DNA from: Dictyostelium discoideum
Taxonomy: Eukaryota
Direction: 5' to 3'
Assembly (NCBI GenBank): GCA_000004695.1
Contig: CM000151.3
Coordinates: forward strand, 320,001-384,000
Length of the DNA stretch: 64,000 nt
This document shows, piece after piece, positions 3,360 through 54,000 of this stretch; the first letter of the stretch is position 1; the number at the start of each line of letters is the position of its first letter. The position numbers and the translations under genes are program-made. The notes beneath the pieces were generated by a model. The model was not told the DNA's origin, did not search any database, and worked only from the letters and a program-made list of their open reading frames with translations.

Positions 3360-5456
3360 ATGTCAAAAAATAAAAAAACTAAAACAGATAATAAAATATT
3401 TCAAGATGTTATTGATTTTGAAATTTTAAGACCTATAATCAATTATTTATTAATCAGCAAAAATAAAAATAATAATAATAATAATAATAATAATACTAAT
3501 AGTAATCAATATAAAATTAATAAATTTTATTTAAATAGAAATGAAATATTAAATTATATATTAGTTTCAAAAAAGTGGTATAATTTTATATCATTAACAA
3601 TATCAAATAATATAATTAATAATAAATCATTTGAAAATTGGTTAGAAATTAATAATAATAATAATAATAATAATAAATCATTTATTGAAAATTATAATAA
3701 TCAAAATCAATATGATAAAAATAATTTAATTTTTAATATTAAAAATGAAAAACCAAATTATTATAATCAAAAACGAAATAATACAGTTTTTAATAACAAA
3801 GAAGATAAACAAAATAAAATTAGTTTTAATAAAGAGTTTTCAATTATAAAAATCAAAGAATCAATAATCGATGATTATTTTAAATTCAATTTATTTTTAG
3901 ATGATATTACAATTGATGATTTTAAAGAAATTAAAAATAAATTTGAAAATAACCAATTACTATATAATAGAATTGTAGTTAATCTTAAAACTAGTGGTAA
4001 TAATACTTTATTTGAAATAAATGAATATGTATCAAATGAAAATTCAGAAATCGTATCAAATTTATTTAAAATATTAGAATTAAATTTTGATTTTTGGTTG
4101 GAGGATGGTTATAGTGCAAAATATGAAGAGTTGGAGGAGGAGGATGATCATGGTGGTAAGAAATGTACTGAATTATTTTTAATAAATAATTTATCAATTT
4201 CTGGTTTTAATATTAGTATAGGTAATGATGAAACATTAAAGATATTCAAAAATTTCAAAAGTAAACATATAATATATGATGGGTCAGATGATGTTGATAA
4301 TTATCAAGCGCATGCCAATTATTCAGTATTATTCGATCCAGATAATTCAGGTCAACAAGTTGAATCAATTAAAGTACAAAGTAAACATGGTAATAAAGAG
4401 TCTGTTGAACCACTCCATTTGATCAACGTTAATCAATTTGAAAATTTACATTCAATTACAATACCAATAAATTCAATTCTATTATTATCAGAGATATCTA
4501 AAGAAATGGGCTTTTATGGATTCTATGATGGAAATGCATATTCAAGTTTTACTGGAGATGTCAAATCAGAATTAATCGAAATGGTCTTTTCAATCGCTAC
4601 AAGTGAATCTTTAAAGAATTTAAATATAACATCAATCAATTTTGAACAATATCCAATTAATTTCCAAGATTACGCTCACTATTATTTATCTCTTCCTGGT
4701 GGTGGTGGTCTTGAATTTTTTGCAAACAAAATAAATGAAATTATAGAACAATTTTCAAATTCATTTCAACCATTATTTTCAGAATTAAATACATCAATTG
4801 AAAGAATTGAATTTGATTGTTGTGGTTTATTAAATATCAATACATTTTCAAATTTATTAAATAATAAATCAATTAAATATTTATATTTATATAATAGTGA
4901 TTTCATTGTTTATTCATTAAAACAAAATGATAGTGGTAGTGGTAGTATGAAGCAAATGCATAAAGAACCTATTTCAATTAATCAATATTTATTTGAAAAT
5001 ATATTTTCATCACCATTAACATCAATTAGACATTATAAAATTAATTTCAAAGAATCAAAACAAATCAAACCAGTATTTAATTTAATATTAAATAATATTT
5101 TTAAATTACAATTATATTCATTAATATTTGTATTAAATAAAAGTAAATTAATTGGTGAATTTGTTAAAGAATTTAAAAATTTAATAAATAATATTTCAAT
5201 ACAACTACAACATCAACAAGAACAACAACAACAACAAGAACAACAAAAACAAAAATTAAATAATATAAATTTAAAAGAATTTAAAATTAAAATTGAAATT
5301 GAAAATAAAATTAAAATTAAAATCAAAGATAAAAATGAAATTAAAATTAATGAAAGGTATATTCAAGAATTAAATAATATTGATAATCCATATTTCACAA
5401 CAGTAATAAAGAAGATAGTTAGAAATGAAACCCCAAAAAAAAATTATCGAAAATAA
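3360..5456 (+). CDS. Family-1 paralog, copy 1 (698 aa, uninterrupted): putative F-box-like N-terminus and an Asn-rich protein of unknown function
   Basis: Long ORF. The N-terminal segment KIFQDVIDFEILRPIINYLL...FYLNRNEILNYILVSKKWYNFISL resembles the F-box consensus (LP.EIL..I...L...VSK.W). Paralogous to 14485-16395 and to the pseudocopies listed below. Confidence 0.7.
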   Translation: MSKNKKTKTDNKIFQDVIDFEILRPIINYLLISKNKNNNNNNNNNTNSNQYKINKFYLNRNEILNYILVSKKWYNFISLTISNNIINNKSFENWLEINNNNNNNNKSFIENYNNQNQYDKNNLIFNIKNEKPNYYNQKRNNTVFNNKEDKQNKISFNKEFSIIKIKESIIDDYFKFNLFLDDITIDDFKEIKNKFENNQLLYNRIVVNLKTSGNNTLFEINEYVSNENSEIVSNLFKILELNFDFWLEDGYSAKYEELEEEDDHGGKKCTELFLINNLSISGFNISIGNDETLKIFKNFKSKHIIYDGSDDVDNYQAHANYSVLFDPDNSGQQVESIKVQSKHGNKESVEPLHLINVNQFENLHSITIPINSILLLSEISKEMGFYGFYDGNAYSSFTGDVKSELIEMVFSIATSESLKNLNITSINFEQYPINFQDYAHYYLSLPGGGGLEFFANKINEIIEQFSNSFQPLFSELNTSIERIEFDCCGLLNINTFSNLLNNKSIKYLYLYNSDFIVYSLKQNDSGSGSMKQMHKEPISINQYLFENIFSSPLTSIRHYKINFKESKQIKPVFNLILNNIFKLQLYSLIFVLNKSKLIGEFVKEFKNLINNISIQLQHQQEQQQQQEQQKQKLNNINLKEFKIKIEIENKIKIKIKDKNEIKINERYIQELNNIDNPYFTTVIKKIVRNETPKKNYRK

Positions 5457-5885: not shown

Positions 5886-6164
5886 TCTCTTTTTATGTCC
5901 AATCATTTCATTACAGTTAGTGGTGGTGGTGGTGGTGGAACTATTACCAATACTATCTACTATTTCCTTTACTTTATTGTTGTTGTGTGATATATTGTTG
6001 ATTATTTATTTTTTTGCTGCATATTTTGTTTATTTATTTATTTTTTTTTTTTATTTTTTTATTTTATTTTTTAATCTCGAACGAAAAATTTTCAAAAAAA
6101 AAAAATTAACCTCTTTTGACATTATTATTTGTTTAAATTAACTCACTCTTTATAATTTAAACAA

Positions 6165-6201
6165 ATAATAATGTCAACAAATAAAAAAATTAACCAGCAA
6201 A

Positions 6202-19109: not shown

Positions 19110-19420
19110 TTTCTTTTTAAAGTTGAAAAAAAAAAAAAAAGGTATGCTACAAGAAATCAAAAAATTCTTCGAAAATTAATGAAGTTTTTTTACATTATAT
19201 AATGATAAGGAATTAGTTGATGAATTTATTAAAGAATTTAAAAATCTAATAAATAATATTTCAACAAAACAAGAACAAAAATCAAGAAACATATTTTTTA
19301 AAGAAATTTCTTTACGTATTAATATGATTCAATTCTTCTAAATACGTAAATAAGTATTTAGAAGAATTGAATCATATTAATAATCCATTTTTCAAAACAA
19401 TAATAAAGAGTTACCAATTA
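18950..19420 (+). pseudogene. Heavily deleted family-1 copy: start fragment at about 18953-19040 and C-terminal fragment at about 19195-19420
   Basis: aatgtcaacaagtaaaaaaattaaaacagataataataataaaatatttcaagatcttattgat...; later ...ttagttgatgaatttattaaagaatttaaaaatctaataaataatatttcaac...ccatttttcaaaacaataataaagagttaccaa. A 28-bp inverted duplication lies at 19318-19381. Confidence 0.5.
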
Positions 19421-20091: not shown

Positions 20092-21329
20092 AATCAAATC
20101 AAATCAAATCAAATCAAATCAAATCAAATCAAATCAAATCAAATCAAATCAAACCAAATCAAATCAAATCAAATAAAATAGAATCTAATCAAATTAAACA
20201 AAATCAAAAAAAAAAAAAAAAAAAAAAAAAATAAATAAAATTGGATAATGCAAATTAATCTTTATTTTATTTTTAAATTATTATTTATTATTATTGTTTT
20301 TTTTATTATTTTACCTTTATTTTTTTTTTTTTTTAATTAATAATCGTCAAGATATTACAAAAAAAAAATAAAAAATAAAAATTAAATTTAGTAATAGTTT
20401 AAAAAATAAAGAGTATTTTTATTATTTATTTTTTTTATTTTAAAAATTTTACCAAAACAAAGTCTGCTAGTTTTTTTTTACTTTTTATTTTTAGCCTTAT
20501 TTTTATAAAAATAATTAGTCGTTAAAACATATCATTTATGTTCAATATACAAACTATACTTACTCAGAATCTACAAATTTTTATCCGTTAATTGTGGTTA
20601 TAAAGTGTTTTTAATTTCAAATATTATATAAAAAAAATAAAATTTTAAAAATAACCAATTTGTAATAAAAACAAATAAAAATTATGTAACTATTTGTAAA
20701 ATAAACTTTTCAAATAAATAATATTAATAATTATAGAAAAAGATTTTTAAGTTATCATTATTTTTTTTTTTTTTTTTGGTTTTGTTATTTTTTTTTTAAT
20801 ATGAAATTTGTAATATTATTAAAATGGTATTTTTAGATGATAACTGTTAAAAAATGTGGTTAAATTTTATGAAACTTTTATAAAAACTTAGTGTGTTTAT
20901 TTGATTTTTTTTTTTGTTTTTATTTTTTTTTCTCACTTTAGTAAAAAAAAAAATAAAAAAAAAAAATAAAAAATTAATGAATAATAAATAAATTGAATTG
21001 GGTGACCCATAATTAATAAATAATTAAAAAAAAAAATTTTTTGCTGACCCTGGTTAATTGAAAAAAAAAAAAATGGAAAAAATATTATATTAATATGGAA
21101 GTTTTTAAAAAAAACATGGAATGGAAGGGAAATTAAAAAAAACACCCTTTTTTTCCAAAAGTGGAAAAAGGTCGAACACTGGTATACAAGTTTGAATGAT
21201 AATTTTTTGATCACTTTAAACCTTACCAAAAAAACACATATTTTTTTTTTAATCATAATTTTTTTTTTATTACAATTCAATTCTGAAAAAATTTTATAAT
21301 TTTTTATTTTTGTTTTCATTGTTTCAGAT

Positions 21330-21751
21330 CTAATAATGAAAAACTTTTTTTGGTTGTCTACTTAGATATATTGTAACAAAGATTAAATTCATTAAGTTAT
21401 CTGCTCTTCTCCATGAGCCCTTAGATGATGGAGGAATATCAAATTCTTCTCCTCCGTATTCAATTTTACCTGTTATTACTTTAAATTCTTTATTGGTTAA
21501 AATTGGGCCTTCAATTGTGTATCCAGAAAGTCTAAAAGTATATGGTGCAGGATAAGGTAATATAGGTAGAGGATACTCTATATTTTTAAAAAAGCCAGAA
21601 GAATGAAATTAAATGTTTATTTTTTAATATATAAACTAAAATTAAATATTTATAAATTAATAATTCTAATTAACCTACCTGTACCACTTATTGTTGATCT
21701 CCCTTTATCAGTAAATATTGTAATTTTAAATTCAGGCACTTCTTCAGCCAT
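21330..21751 (-). CDS. Small 2-exon gene of unknown function (about 106 aa): exon 1 21679-21751, intron 21578-21678, exon 2 21330-21577
   Basis: MAEEVPEFKITIFTDKGRSTISGT / EYPLPILPYPAPYTFRLSGYTIEGPILTNKEFKVITGKIEYGGEEFDIPPSSKGSWRRADNL.... Canonical GTAGGT...ATAG intron of 101 nt. Non-repetitive composition and normal codon usage. Confidence 0.45.
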
Positions 21752-22280
21752 TCTATAATTTATTTATTTATTTTAATTTAAAGTTAAAATTTAAATAAAT
21801 ATTTTTTTTTTATTTTGAAAGATGAAAAAAAAAGATTAAATACTAAAAAAAAAAGAATGAAAAGAAAAAAAAAAAAGAAAAAAAAGAAAAAAATTAAAAA
21901 TATTGTTTTATTACTATGATCCAATTATTCAAAATATCATAATAATCTCTCTCATATCTCCATTAAAAAAAAACAGAACTAAAATTATTAAAAAATTACA
22001 ATAAATCATCTTCACCCCATTGTTAACCAAAACAGTTTTTTTTTTTAATATTGGCTGAAAAAAAAATTTTAGAAAATTCATTATTTTATTAGATATTTTA
22101 TGACACGTAATTTCTCACTTTTAATAAAGAGATTGTAATTTAATAAAATTTTTAACAAATTAATATTAATTAATAATATATCATATTTTAATATAAAATT
22201 ATCATTAAATAATAAAAAAAGAATTAGCCCATAATAAAAATACAAATAAATATTAATTACACCCCCAACGAGCAAAATGA

Positions 22281-22394
22281 CTACGTAACCCCTGTAAGCG
22301 GCTAATAGGCCTGTAAGACGAATAGCCGGATTTGTGGGCTACACTGGTTGTAAGGATTACAAGGGCTACTAACCGCTTATAGGGGTTATGTAGT
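22281..22394. ncRNA. Candidate structured RNA or repeat remnant: a GC-rich island (22255-22400) that can form an approximately 30-bp stem closing a 52-nt loop
   Basis: ctacgtaacccctgtaagcggctaataggcc ... ggctactaaccgcttataggggttatgtag form an imperfect inverted repeat with 4 mismatches; on either strand 2 of the 4 are G-U-compatible. No coding potential. Confidence 0.25.
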
Positions 22395-22421
22395 TATTTG
22401 AATTCGTTTAAAAATAATATT

Positions 22422-22499
22422 CAACGAAATTTCAAACAAAGAAATAAACAAATATATTTATATATAAATTTGCTTATTTCTTTGTTTGAAATTTCATTG
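22422..22499. repeat. Near-perfect 38-bp-arm palindrome immediately downstream of the GC island
   Basis: caacgaaatttcaaacaaagaaataaacaaatatat | atatataaatttgcttatttctttgtttgaaatttcattg (3 mismatches). Confidence 0.55.
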
Positions 22500-22850
22500 A
22501 AAAAAAATAATAAAATTTCATTAAAAAAAATAAATAAACGGAATTCCATAAAATAAATAAAAAATAAATAAACAAATAAACAAATAAATAAATAAATAAA
22601 TAAATTTAATTTTCAATAACATTTAATTCCTTTATTTTTAAAATTTTTTAATCTGAACTAAAATTTTTTTTTTTTTTTTTTTTTCTAAAATTAATATTAG
22701 TATATCATAATAAAGATTGTAAAACTTTTGTTTATTTTAAGTGAATATTTATGAATTACAATTTTTTTTTAAATGTTACAAATGTCGCTGTATTTTTTTA
22801 AGTGTTACAAAATGTTTTTTATTGGTTTTTTTTTTTTTTTTTTTAAATTT

Positions 22851-22883
<33 letters not shown>

Positions 22884-23049
22884 CTAAATAAAATCCGTTA
22901 CACCATAAAAATGTTTTTTATTTGTTTTTTTTTTTATTTTTTTTTTTATATTTTTTTTTATATTTATTTATTTTTTTTTTTTTTTTATTTTTTAATTTCC
23001 CCCACCACCACAACAATGAAAAATAATTTATATATTTAAATTATTTTAA

Positions 23050-26998: not shown

Positions 26999-27021
26999 CA
27001 ATAAATTTTTAAAATTGAAAG

Positions 27022-27095
27022 TATTCAGAGCGGGAATCGAACCCACGACCTAATCCGTGTTAAGGATTCGTGATAACCGACTACACCATCCGAAC
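27022..27095 (-). tRNA. tRNA-Val (anticodon AAC)
   Basis: Minus strand reads GTTCGGATGGTGTAGTCGGTTATCACGAATCCTTAACACGGATTAGGTCGTGGGTTCGATTCCCGCTCTGAATA. Acceptor stem 7 bp including G-U pairs; D-arm GTGT/TCAC; anticodon stem AATCC/GGATT with loop TTAACAC; T-arm GTGGG-TTCGATT-CCCGC; A and B box-like elements present. Confidence 0.8.
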
Positions 27096-28022: not shown

Positions 28023-30199
<2,177 letters not shown>

Positions 30200-40898: not shown

Positions 40899-41029
40899 AT
40901 AAATAATAAATTAAATTACTTTTTTTAAAAAATTGAATTTCTTATTTTGGAAATTGTGATTGAAAATAATTGTTTAATTTTATTTATTTATCTGATTTTA
41001 TTTTATATTTTTTTTTTTTTACCACTTCA

Positions 41030-41235
41030 CTATCAGCGCTACCACCACAACTTCAATCAGCGCCGCCACCACTTCTACTATAAGCGCCACCACCACTTCT
41101 ACTATCAGCACTAACACCACAACTTTAATCAACGCTACCACCACAACTTTAATCAGCGCTAACACCACTTCTACTATAAGCGCCACCACCACTTCTACTA
41201 TCAGCACTACTACTTCTATTAGAACTACCACTATA
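41030..41235. repeat. GC-richer minisatellite, about 9 tandem copies of a 24-bp unit (ccaccac[at][at]ct[at]c[at]at[ac]agcgc[tc]a)
   Basis: Direct reading. ORF 41019-41240 (VVVALIVEVV...) is a translation artefact of the repeat. Confidence 0.6.
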
Positions 41236-41761
41236 AACACCCCATTTCTATTATTATACTGCAGTTACTGTCACTGTTATTATCACTGTTGCTATTACTA
41301 TTATATTCAGTAATACGATTCCCAATGCTATTTTAAATAATTCTTTAATGTTATTACCAAAATGATGCTCATAAATTAATGATTTTAATAATTCTCTGAA
41401 TCTTTTTAACCAACATTTTAGTGAAAATGAAAAAAAAAAAATAAAAAAAAATAAAAAAAAAAAAAATAACCACAAGTCAGCAAAATTATAGTGCGTTTTG
41501 AGCAAATTAATCATAAAAAAAAAAATTAAAAAAACTCACCCAAGTCAAACAAAAAAAAAAAAAAAAAAAAAAAAAATAAAAAAAGGGTTTAAACTCGCCA
41601 TAAAATATTAAAAAACTTTCTAAGTTAATTATTATGAATATTTTTTTTTTATTTTAAAAATTTAAAACTATACAATAAAAATATTTTATACTAAAATTTT
41701 TTTGAAAATAAAATAAATTGAATTTTATTTATTTATTTATTTTTATTATTATTATTATTAA

Positions 41762-52576: not shown

Positions 52577-54000
52577 TGGCATGGGACTTATGTCTGCCAA
52601 AATTACCATATTAATTTCAGCAGCCATATTAATTTTGGCATGGGACTAATGTCTGCCAAAATTACCGTATTAATTCCAGCAGTCATATTAATTTCAGCAT
52701 GTACATAGCAGCCAAAATTAATATGGTAATTTTGGCATAGAAAAAAAAAAGTCAAAGTCATTTAATTAATAATCATCTCAAATATAAACAAAATTTTAGT
52801 ACTAAAATTATTATTATTATTATTTTTATTATAATAATTATAATAATAAAAAAAAAAAAAAAAAAATTTTCATATTATTTTATTTATATCTTTTATTTAT
52901 TTTTATCTTTTTATTTTTATTATTAATTTTATAATTTATTTTCATTTCTTTTTTTTTAGTTGATATATATTTTTTTATTATTCATTTATGTCCACAGCTC
53001 ACAAAAAAAAAAATTAAAATAAAAAAAAATAAAATAAAAAAAAAAAAAAAAAATAATTTTTTTTTTTTAATTATTGGCTCTTCTACTAACTCTTTTGTTA
53101 CTAACAGATGAAGTTTCGTTTGAAAATCTTTTGGTGAAAAAATCAGCATCAGATTGTAATTGATTAGCTCTTTTTTTACCCGTTTTGTTTTTGTTTGATT
53201 GAGTTGTGATTCCACCATTATTGGAAGTTGTTGCAGCTTCATGTGTTGATCTAACTTCGGTGGTAGAGTGCTCGATTGCTTTTTCAACTAGGTCATCTTT
53301 TGATTTTCTTTTGGTTATTTCGATATCCCTTTGCAATTTATTTTTACTTGAGAGTTTGGTGGCCTCTATTCTAGAAGTAGGCTCAGTATTGTAATAAGCT
53401 TTTATAATAGCAGAATGATTATCTGCTTTATAATGATTACTGATGTGCTGTTGACACTGGTTTTGATTAATCATATGAGAGACCATCTTCATCTTTGTTA
53501 AGCCTAACCTTCTCTATAATCTTCACTAAGTCTTTTGAATTTTTGGGTACCAATTTTTTCTTTTTATCTTTATCAATATAAAACACTTCTTTAATAGTTG
53601 CCGTACCATATTCTACATTCTCAACAACATACTGTTTATCCAAAATGTTTTTCCAATAGCTTATATTTGGTCCACTCAATTTGGTATTATGAAATTTATA
53701 ATCTATTTTAAATTTTACATCTTCATCATATTTTTTCAAAAGTTTTTTTAATTTATTATTATTATTTTTTTCAATTTCTGTTGCAGATTATTTAATTTAT
53801 TGTTTCACTGTAGACCATTTTTTGGAACGAAAACTTTAAAAAAATAAAAAAAAAAATACTTTTTAATTTTTTTAATTTTTTTTTTTATATTTTTTTTTTT
53901 TATATTTTTTTTTTTTATATTTTTTTTTTTTAAATTTTTTTTTTTTAATTTTTATTATTGGTATGGTAATTAAAAATCTTATTTTTACTATTTTTTGAAA
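52569..54000 (-). mobile_element. Second, inverted and probably truncated copy of the unclassified terminal-inverted-repeat element (homolog of 28023-30199). It lies next to a minus-strand family-1 pseudogene.
   Basis: 52569-52745 is the reverse complement of the right terminal repeat of copy 1, with one extra sub-repeat unit. 52740-53960 is collinear with the reverse complement of 28900-30050. Homology is lost at about 54000 at a (CAAAAA)n tract. Confidence 0.55.
52982..53739 (-). CDS. Element-borne ORF, copy 2 (same about 255-aa protein), with a single frameshift near 53470 at a different site from copy 1
   Basis: ORFs 53467-53739 (MKKYDEDVKFKIDYKFHNTKLSGPNISYWKNILDKQYVVENVEYGTATIKEVFYIDKDKKKKLVPKNSKDLVKIIEKVRLNKDEDGLSYD) and 53067-53492 (MKMVSHMINQNQCQQHIS...RVSRRANN). 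Confidence 0.5.

Follow-up and report, generated by a model that had tools for sequence, protein, structure and literature searches.

A GC-rich inverted repeat in the upstream regions of four duplicated csb genes of Dictyostelium discoideum

Does a GC-rich island in an AT-rich genome mark a gene for a structured non-coding RNA (ncRNA)? The question is raised by a 140-bp segment of Dictyostelium discoideum chromosome 2, located at positions 22261-22400 of a 64-kb stretch (hereafter the window, whose genes are AX4 genes), which folds back on itself into a long hairpin. An initial annotation of the window had proposed a structured ncRNA gene at this site or, alternatively, a novel small element or a hot spot of hairpin-mediated recombination. 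According to the best reading of the data presented here, the island is a young inverted repeat specific to D. discoideum, located in the shared 5' region of a recently duplicated subfamily of csb genes. It has spread solely through the segmental duplications that made the four csb genes, and it may act upstream of them as a promoter element rather than as an RNA.

The island, its foldback and its four copies

The compositional contrast that first drew attention to the locus was borne out. The island contains 46.4% GC (45.2% over the wider span 22255-22400), as compared to 12-15% over 21950-22254 and 11% over 22401-23000, and its richest 100-nt segment (0.49 GC) ranks among the top 0.1% of such segments in a window of 21.8% GC. 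Coding potential had been denied to the island from the outset, and rightly so, as the palindromic sequence holds a single open frame of 46 codons, which lies on the minus strand and has no start codon. The setting is a divergent intergenic region. The ATG of DDB_G0271178 is located about 515 bp to the left, and the island resides within the 5' intergenic region of this gene. DDB_G0271178 (21326-21747, minus strand; chr2:341330-341751 in AX4) has two exons, which were spliced by hand, and its product of 106 amino acids belongs to the csb family and carries a Dicty_CAD domain. From the chromosomal position of the gene, the island is placed at about chr2:342,265-342,404. The only stretch of the window that is richer in GC (40994-41255; 0.51) is a tandem repeat of ACCACCAC and ATCAGCGC, which is situated directly downstream of an open reading frame of 943 amino acids and looks like repetitive coding sequence on the minus strand.

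Three further copies of the island were found at the loci of the three closest csb paralogs (L002 and L004; a third set of such loci is designated L003), and the genes were assigned to the copies by protein alignment. Each of the four copies is located some 440-515 bp upstream of a csb paralog, and all share one orientation with respect to their genes. Copy A (window 22255-22410, upstream of DDB_G0271178) and copy B (L002 9328-9484, upstream of staC/DDB_G0271196), which is 96.8% identical to it over 156 nt, are intact. Copy C (L004 3688-3844, upstream of DDB_G0271326) is 93% identical and has a damaged stem, and copy D (L004 9407-9493, upstream of DDB_G0271320) has lost 24 nt and 38 nt in two deletions. 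In AX4, copy C is placed at about chr2:101,438-101,594, and extrapolation puts copies B and D near 305.5 kb and 107.2 kb, respectively. Colinearity between the loci of copies A and B extends over about 3.2 kb, with an identity of roughly 91%, and the copies therefore are segmental duplicates. Four more distant csb paralogs (L003) have neither the island nor its CTGTAAG motif (see below), and no unlinked copy was detected in the approximately 125 kb of sequence examined. Thus, the search for other copies, which the initial annotation had suggested in order to distinguish an ncRNA from a repeat, did reveal additional ones, but all of them belong to csb-linked duplications and none is dispersed within these 125 kb. 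Pattern scans with the two-arm hairpin, a 23-mer of the arm, and a 22-mer of the apical region gave no match in metagenome, prokaryote-genome, and viral collections (which are without dictyostelid genomes), and these scans show no sign of a foreign origin.

Protein searches with the csb gene product returned only four D. discoideum clusters. In a published orthogroup table, the family consists of D. discoideum members plus two proteins with XP_ accessions. These two are tentatively taken to be proteins of D. fasciculatum. The staC gene is recorded in D. discoideum only (PMC9117722). Besides DDB_G0271178, the csb genes in question are located at L002 10001-10423, L004 4280-4702, and L004 10001-10423. 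All six pairwise comparisons of the four genes gave ratios of nonsynonymous to synonymous divergence (dN/dS) of 1.7-5.5, with dN between 0.04 and 0.12, which has the appearance of diversifying selection acting on Dicty_CAD proteins expressed in the stalk. Introns of equal length (B-C, B-D, and C-D) are 97-99% identical, the upstream DNA of A and B is mostly about 88-100% identical, and gene conversion possibly took place in the csb flanks.

The island folds into an imperfect foldback of 141 nt (22268-22408, plus strand). Its core is a stem of 27 uninterrupted pairs between the 5' arm (22275-22301) and the 3' arm (22373-22399), with 24 Watson-Crick pairs and, on the plus strand, three G.U pairs (22279/22395, 22285/22389, and 22294/22380), two of which are accounted for by C-to-T changes specific to copy A. 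A 6-bp outer helix (22268-22273 with 22403-22408) extends this core at the base, and an imperfect upper stem with the apical region (22302-22372) lies inside it. The stem described initially thus is real, but it was drawn too short, because the core helix and the outer helix reach beyond it, and its 3' arm was one base out of place. With the register proposed at that time (22281-22311 with 22364-22394), only 11 of the 31 positions pair. In the true register, position i pairs with position 44674-i, which puts the 3' arm at 22363-22393 and leaves a loop of 51 nt. The 31 positions then comprise 26 Watson-Crick pairs, two G.U pairs on the plus strand, two A.C positions that would become G.U on the minus strand, and one G.G, and this is near the 27 of 31 pairs counted originally.

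The plus strand of copy A folds with -73.8 kcal/mol (z = -8.6 to -9.6; none of 200 shuffled sequences was as stable), corresponding to about -0.5 kcal/mol/nt over 149-156 nt, and the minus strand folds with -57.5 kcal/mol (z = -6.1 to -7.6). Elsewhere in the window, hairpins with 27 uninterrupted pairs are confined to copies of thug-S/mir-7131, a palindromic repeat present at 28025-28193, 30050-30194, and 52588-52744. Its first copy matches the Rfam family mir-7131 on both strands (98.9 and 95.8 bits), and multicopy microRNA (miRNA) loci inside the thug-S repeat have been reported in the literature.

A candidate promoter module

None of the four csb paralogs is expressed before 18 h, and expression is highest at 24 h, with polyA values at this time of 460 (A), 413 (B), 212 (C), and 20.7 (D) (PMC5295588, File S5). 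The corresponding values in a series depleted of ribosomal RNA (rRNA) are 197, 218, 93, and 22.9 (PMC5295588). The expression ranking of the four genes tracks the integrity of the island, from the intact copies A and B through C, with its stem lesions and a mutated G-box-like motif (see below), to D, in which 58 nt, this motif included, are gone. The gene next to copy B, staC, is a stalk marker responsive to cyclic di-GMP (c-di-GMP) (PMC9117722; PMC8808424), and the full 5' intergenic region of staC, which includes copy B, drives lacZ expression in the stalk (PMC9117722).

The arms of the foldback hold a direct pair of the heptamer CTGTAAG (22292-22317, plus strand; copies at 22292-22298 and 22311-22317), a third partial unit, TGTAAG, at 22349-22354, and a mirrored unit on the 3' arm at 22376-22382, which reads CTTATAG in copy A and CTTACAG in copies B and C. 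In copy D, the first two bases of the mirrored unit (22376-22377) are gone with the second deletion. Given these direct and mirrored copies, the arms are built from a repeated unit. Elsewhere in the window, CTGTAAG occurs a single time on both strands taken together. A small palindrome, TTGTAAGGATTACAA, is also contained within the upper stem and apical region. The edge of the island that faces the gene (22259-22269, minus strand) carries a motif resembling G-boxes or C-rich boxes, which reads ACACCCCCAAC on the plus strand and GTTGGGGGTGT on the gene strand. Copies A and B retain this motif unaltered; C has a mutated version (GGCGG), and in D it has been deleted. A second C-rich box at 22010-22030 reads CACCCCATTGTTAACC, or GGTTAACAATGGGGTG on the strand of the gene. 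It is situated some 270 bp upstream of the DDB_G0271178 ATG and is largely kept in the four paralog promoters, with one substitution in C and D and a 6-nt deletion just beyond it in these two copies.

GC-rich upstream elements of the G-box or C-rich box type are known from Dictyostelium developmental promoters. Like these, the island is short and rich in GC, is embedded in very AT-rich intergenic DNA at a distance of a few hundred bp from the developmental gene downstream of it, and has a motif of the GTTGGGGGTGT type and repeats in dyad arrangement. Unlike these, it extends over 140 bp with a near-perfect inverted repeat of 27 bp, making it far larger and more palindromic, and its CTGTAAG repeat is not a known site. 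Our preferred interpretation, to which we assign a probability of about 0.4, is that the island acts as a cis-regulatory module. It would then function at the level of DNA, as a GC-rich upstream activating module located about 350-450 bp before the inferred start of transcription, with motif repeats in dyad symmetry and GTTGGGGGTGT at the edge facing the gene, and would help the four csb genes to reach their strong late expression (18 h onward) in culmination and in the stalk. The ability of the RNA to fold would be a by-product of the inverted repeat, and a neighbouring AT-rich palindrome would represent a later, unrelated local inverted duplication.

Several observations weigh against such a role. 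The link between expression and island integrity is correlative, rests on n = 4 genes, and is confounded, with copy C lacking about 110 bp of the proximal promoter and copy D having other small changes. The likeness of GTTGGGGGTGT to sites of the G-box binding factor is presumed by us, and we know of no transcription factor for CTGTAAG. Copies A and B differ by four substitutions in the 140 nt of the island and by one each in flanks of 111 and 45 nt, and the divergence of the island (3-6%) is similar to or higher than that at synonymous sites of the csb genes (dS 0.02-0.06). As divergence thus is no lower than in the flanks or at synonymous sites, the island bears no signature of purifying selection. 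Moreover, four of four transitions at paired positions retain a G.U pair on the plus strand (one-sided p ~0.06), and this weakly leans toward a plus-strand RNA instead of a DNA-level function. The lean is countered by the ancestral stem, which has equal numbers of A.C and G.U positions. Strand preference is also inconsistent, the GC-rich hairpin being steadier on the plus strand and the AT-rich palindrome on the minus strand.

Decay and structural instability

The AT-rich palindrome, which had been noted initially as a second palindrome at 22422-22499, was confirmed. Its arms (22422-22460 and 22461-22499) form 35 Watson-Crick pairs out of 39, with z values of about -12 on both strands. Only copies A and B have it, and just a part of the left arm is found in copies C and D. 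The right arm lies within a segment of about 410 bp (window ~22441-22850), whose left end creates this arm and which is present upstream of DDB_G0271178 and staC and missing from the DDB_G0271326 and DDB_G0271320 loci. Because it occurs in only two of the four copies, the AT-rich palindrome is no conserved partner of the island, and it is a lineage-specific local inverted duplication of the A/B lineage. Matches of Rfam miRNA families to 22425-22496 were discarded as reflecting merely the shape of an AT-rich hairpin. Neither this type of hairpin nor that of the island ever arose in dinucleotide shuffles of the whole 64 kb (n = 10). The same is true of two further palindromes in the window, at 6111-6182 (27 of 30 positions matching; loop of 12 nt) and 19316-19383 (29 of 30; loop of 8 nt).

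Among the copies of the island, the plus-strand folding energy declines from the value of copy A given above to -70.6 (B), -54.5 (C), and -30.2 kcal/mol (D), and the plus-strand advantage of copy A is due mostly to its two specific C-to-T changes. The second deletion in copy D (22340-22377) is bordered by a direct TACA repeat, as read from the sequence by eye. At the locus of copy C, the missing 110 bp of proximal upstream sequence correspond to window ~22100-22225 (L004 ~3850-3960), and a short inverted segment identified by BLAST matches window ~22073-22153. The duplication that gave the AT-rich palindrome, the deletions in copy D, and the inversion at copy C mark the region as structurally unstable. 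Thus, the idea of a small element or of hairpin-mediated recombination, raised initially as an alternative to an ncRNA gene, fits the locus better than the gene does, considering the microhomology-flanked deletions, the indel of about 410 bp that starts in the AT-rich palindrome, and the small inversion.

Evidence of a conserved RNA structure was sought in an RNAalifold analysis of the three full-length copies. Among 58 pairs, none shows a compensatory change, four have changed on one side while retaining a wobble pair, and six no longer pair, with a covariation term of +1.12. The covariation in the stem on which the initial annotation had made its RNA reading depend is therefore missing from these paralogs. 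Since the comparison comprises only three closely related sequences, its power is low, and at this low power the alignment offers no evidence of selection on an RNA structure.

Alternatively, the foldback might be a neutral relic. An inverted duplication of local sequence, or else an ancient insertion, would have produced it in the subfamily's ancestor, and it would since have been drifting without function while point mutations and slippage deletions erode it. This scenario is consistent with a divergence that is no lower than in the flanks or at synonymous sites, with stem-destroying lesions in two of the four copies, and with a deletion between TACA repeats in copy D. The region also visibly makes palindromes, as exemplified by the one that arose in the A/B lineage only, and a divergence of about 3-7% is too small for a GC-rich segment to have reached the AT content of the genome. 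However, neutrality leaves the source of an internally repeated sequence with 46% GC in a 22% GC genome unexplained, and it does not account for the fact that the expression of the paralogs falls alongside the integrity of the island. In addition, the polarised changes (GC-to-AT versus AT-to-GC) stand at 5:3 where about 5:1 would be expected under AT-biased mutation, although this hand calculation is not significant. All in all, we consider a neutral relic somewhat unlikely.

RNA gene or transposon, and implications

If the island is transcribed, it could be a young hairpin RNA gene, that is, a pri-miRNA-like or hairpin small interfering RNA (siRNA) precursor that is expressed late from the plus strand and diced by DrnB/RbdB to about 21 nt. 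Its promoter region would possibly be shared with the csb gene. The hairpin has 27 uninterrupted pairs, its energy of about -0.5 kcal/mol/nt lies below the limit used for D. discoideum miRNA hairpins (< -0.2 kcal/mol/nt; Liao 2018, Table S1, PMC6161686), and the length of 141 nt falls within the 105-180 nt range of the loci in the same table. Further criteria applied to miRNAs in this organism are at least 10 reads each for the 5p and 3p strands, a duplex with 3' overhangs of 0-4 nt, and dependence on DrnB. The transitions that keep G.U pairs on the plus strand also speak for a hairpin RNA. However, Table S1 lists no such locus, and 11- and 12-mers of the arms are missing from all D. discoideum miRNA supplements searched (PMC6161686, PMC11014262, and PMC4894637). 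Likewise, a full-text literature search with 17-mers of both arms gave no match. The small-RNA libraries behind these tables were made at 0 h and 16 h and the csb genes come on at 18 h, so that a co-regulated hairpin could have been missed. The absence of compensatory changes, the degradation of two of the four copies, and the lack of any sequence complementary to the arms in the window or the related loci argue against a hairpin RNA gene as well.

The comparison with known miRNA precursors of D. discoideum, including the mir-7131/thug-S loci, shows likenesses and differences. The island shares with them the intergenic hairpin, a similar length, and a similar stability per nucleotide (PMC6161686), and it is multicopy like the thug-S-derived mir-7131 loci. 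It differs in being much richer in GC (at 46%, richer than most mature miRNAs in Table S1 appear from reading the table), in its absence from the published tables, and in the stem degradation of half of its copies. A hairpin RNA gene at this site is improbable. Slightly more doubtful still is the more specific proposal of a species-specific, newborn hairpin RNA family (proto-miRNA or hairpin siRNA), active only in culmination, that would have been co-amplified and co-regulated with diversifying, adhesion-like stalk genes.

Among the matches listed in published supplementary data, no intergenic long non-coding RNA (lncRNA) is located at chr2:342 kb. The antisense lncRNA CUFF_744_1 (window 20799-21870, plus strand; chr2:340803-341874) overlaps DDB_G0271178, with which its expression correlates at 0.89, and stops some 390 nt short of the island; for DDB_G0271326, a comparable antisense transcript has been listed (PMC5295588).

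The foldback could also have begun as a transposon. In this scenario it would be the remnant of a miniature inverted-repeat (foldback) element that was inserted upstream of an ancestral csb gene before the family expanded, an origin that is compatible with both the cis-regulatory and the neutral-relic interpretation. Like the thug-S/mir-7131 family, whose miniature palindromic copies occur three times in the same window, the island is short, non-coding, and almost wholly an inverted repeat. However, it shows no similarity to the thug-S copies, no target-site duplication was seen by eye at the ends of the foldback, and in the 125 kb examined there is no copy beyond the csb-linked ones, which are products of segmental duplication. 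The empty pattern scans of the metagenome, prokaryote-genome, and viral collections add to these objections, and a transposon origin appears quite unlikely.

The search for a conventional ncRNA gene, in line with the initial annotation, brought no support for this reading from Rfam, transfer RNA (tRNA), and Class I RNA searches, the miRNA tables, or the covariation analysis. In a search of the whole window against Rfam 15 at gathering thresholds, no family matched at the island. At E<=10, a search of both strands of 22100-22600 yielded only noise at the island (GlsR6 with 11.9 bits against a threshold of 75, drum with 15.3 against 43). ARAGORN found no tRNA there; in the same window, ARAGORN and Rfam agree on a tRNA-Val (anticodon AAC) at 27021-27095 on the minus strand. 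Convincing A and B boxes of an RNA polymerase III gene were not recognised by eye.

A promising candidate was a Class I RNA on the minus strand. The sequence TGGTTGTAAGG at 22345-22355 corresponds on this strand to CCTTACAACCA, which matches the 11-nt Class I motif CCTTACAGCAA at nine of 11 positions, with a C in place of the nearly invariant A10. On the grounds of this partial match, 26 curated D. discoideum Class I RNAs from the supplement of PMC7919456 were used to build a covariance model, with a threshold score of at least 15. With filters off and at E<=10, the model had no match at 22200-22450 on either strand, its best matches in the window reached 10.7 bits and lie away from the island, and the candidate was rejected. 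Class I RNAs begin with a 5' G (AAG), have a 6-bp terminal stem and a CUGU 3' end, and measure about 42-65 nt (PMC7919456). As judged from the sequence, none of these terminal features surrounds the minus-strand motif. What the island has in common with Class I RNAs is a GC content above that of the genome, a nearby motif resembling the Dictyostelium upstream sequence element (DUSE), and the CCTTACAACCA motif adjoining a short helix. The differences comprise the missing model match, the missing G/AAG start, GTTGAC/GTCAAC-type terminal stem and CUGU end, the lack of a DUSE upstream on the minus strand, and a length of 141 nt versus about 60 nt. A GC-rich insert in two long Class I RNAs, DdR-66 and DdR-67, presumably resembles a fragment of large-subunit rRNA. 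In the published supplement, this insert reads GGTGGGAGAC...GTGAAA.ACCACC (PMC7919456).

A DUSE upstream of the island had been suggested as a further check. A similar motif, GCCCATAA, does exist on the plus strand at 22227-22234, 34 nt before the base of the foldback and 41 nt before the core stem, but its first base deviates from the consensus and its distance is not canonical. The consensus is [AT]CCCA[AT]AA at a position about 63 bp upstream (PMC3188802), and a start some 60-63 nt past GCCCATAA would be located within the 5' arm, at about 22290-22297, so that the stem would be cut. GCCCATAA fits the core CCCA[AT]AA, which is rare (12 occurrences on the plus strand of the window), and it is kept in copies A, B, and D. 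In copy C, where it reads GCGAATAA, it is counted with the missing proximal upstream sequence. On the plus strand, no run of at least four T residues follows within 100 nt downstream; on the minus strand, TTTT stands directly after the stem (AAAA at 22274-22277 of the plus strand). Thus, although GC-rich islands are typical of ncRNA genes in this genome, a stable structured ncRNA driven by the DUSE-like element, such as a panhandle RNA of roughly 85-140 nt akin to the other small RNAs that depend on a DUSE in Dictyostelium, is highly improbable, in view of the off-consensus base, the start inside the arm, the missing T run, the negative Rfam and Class I searches, and the loss of the motif in copy C and of the stem in copy D.

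If the island is indeed an activating cis-regulatory module, its four natural variants, two of them intact, one damaged by point mutations, and one truncated, would constitute a ready-made allelic series. To our knowledge, no cis-element or factor has yet been defined for c-di-GMP-responsive stalk genes such as staC, and this series could be used to dissect how such genes are switched on. Transcription of the island, on the other hand, would make it an example of a hairpin RNA gene observed soon after its birth. In either case, the locus illustrates that the mere presence of a GC island in an AT-rich genome does not constitute evidence of an ncRNA gene.

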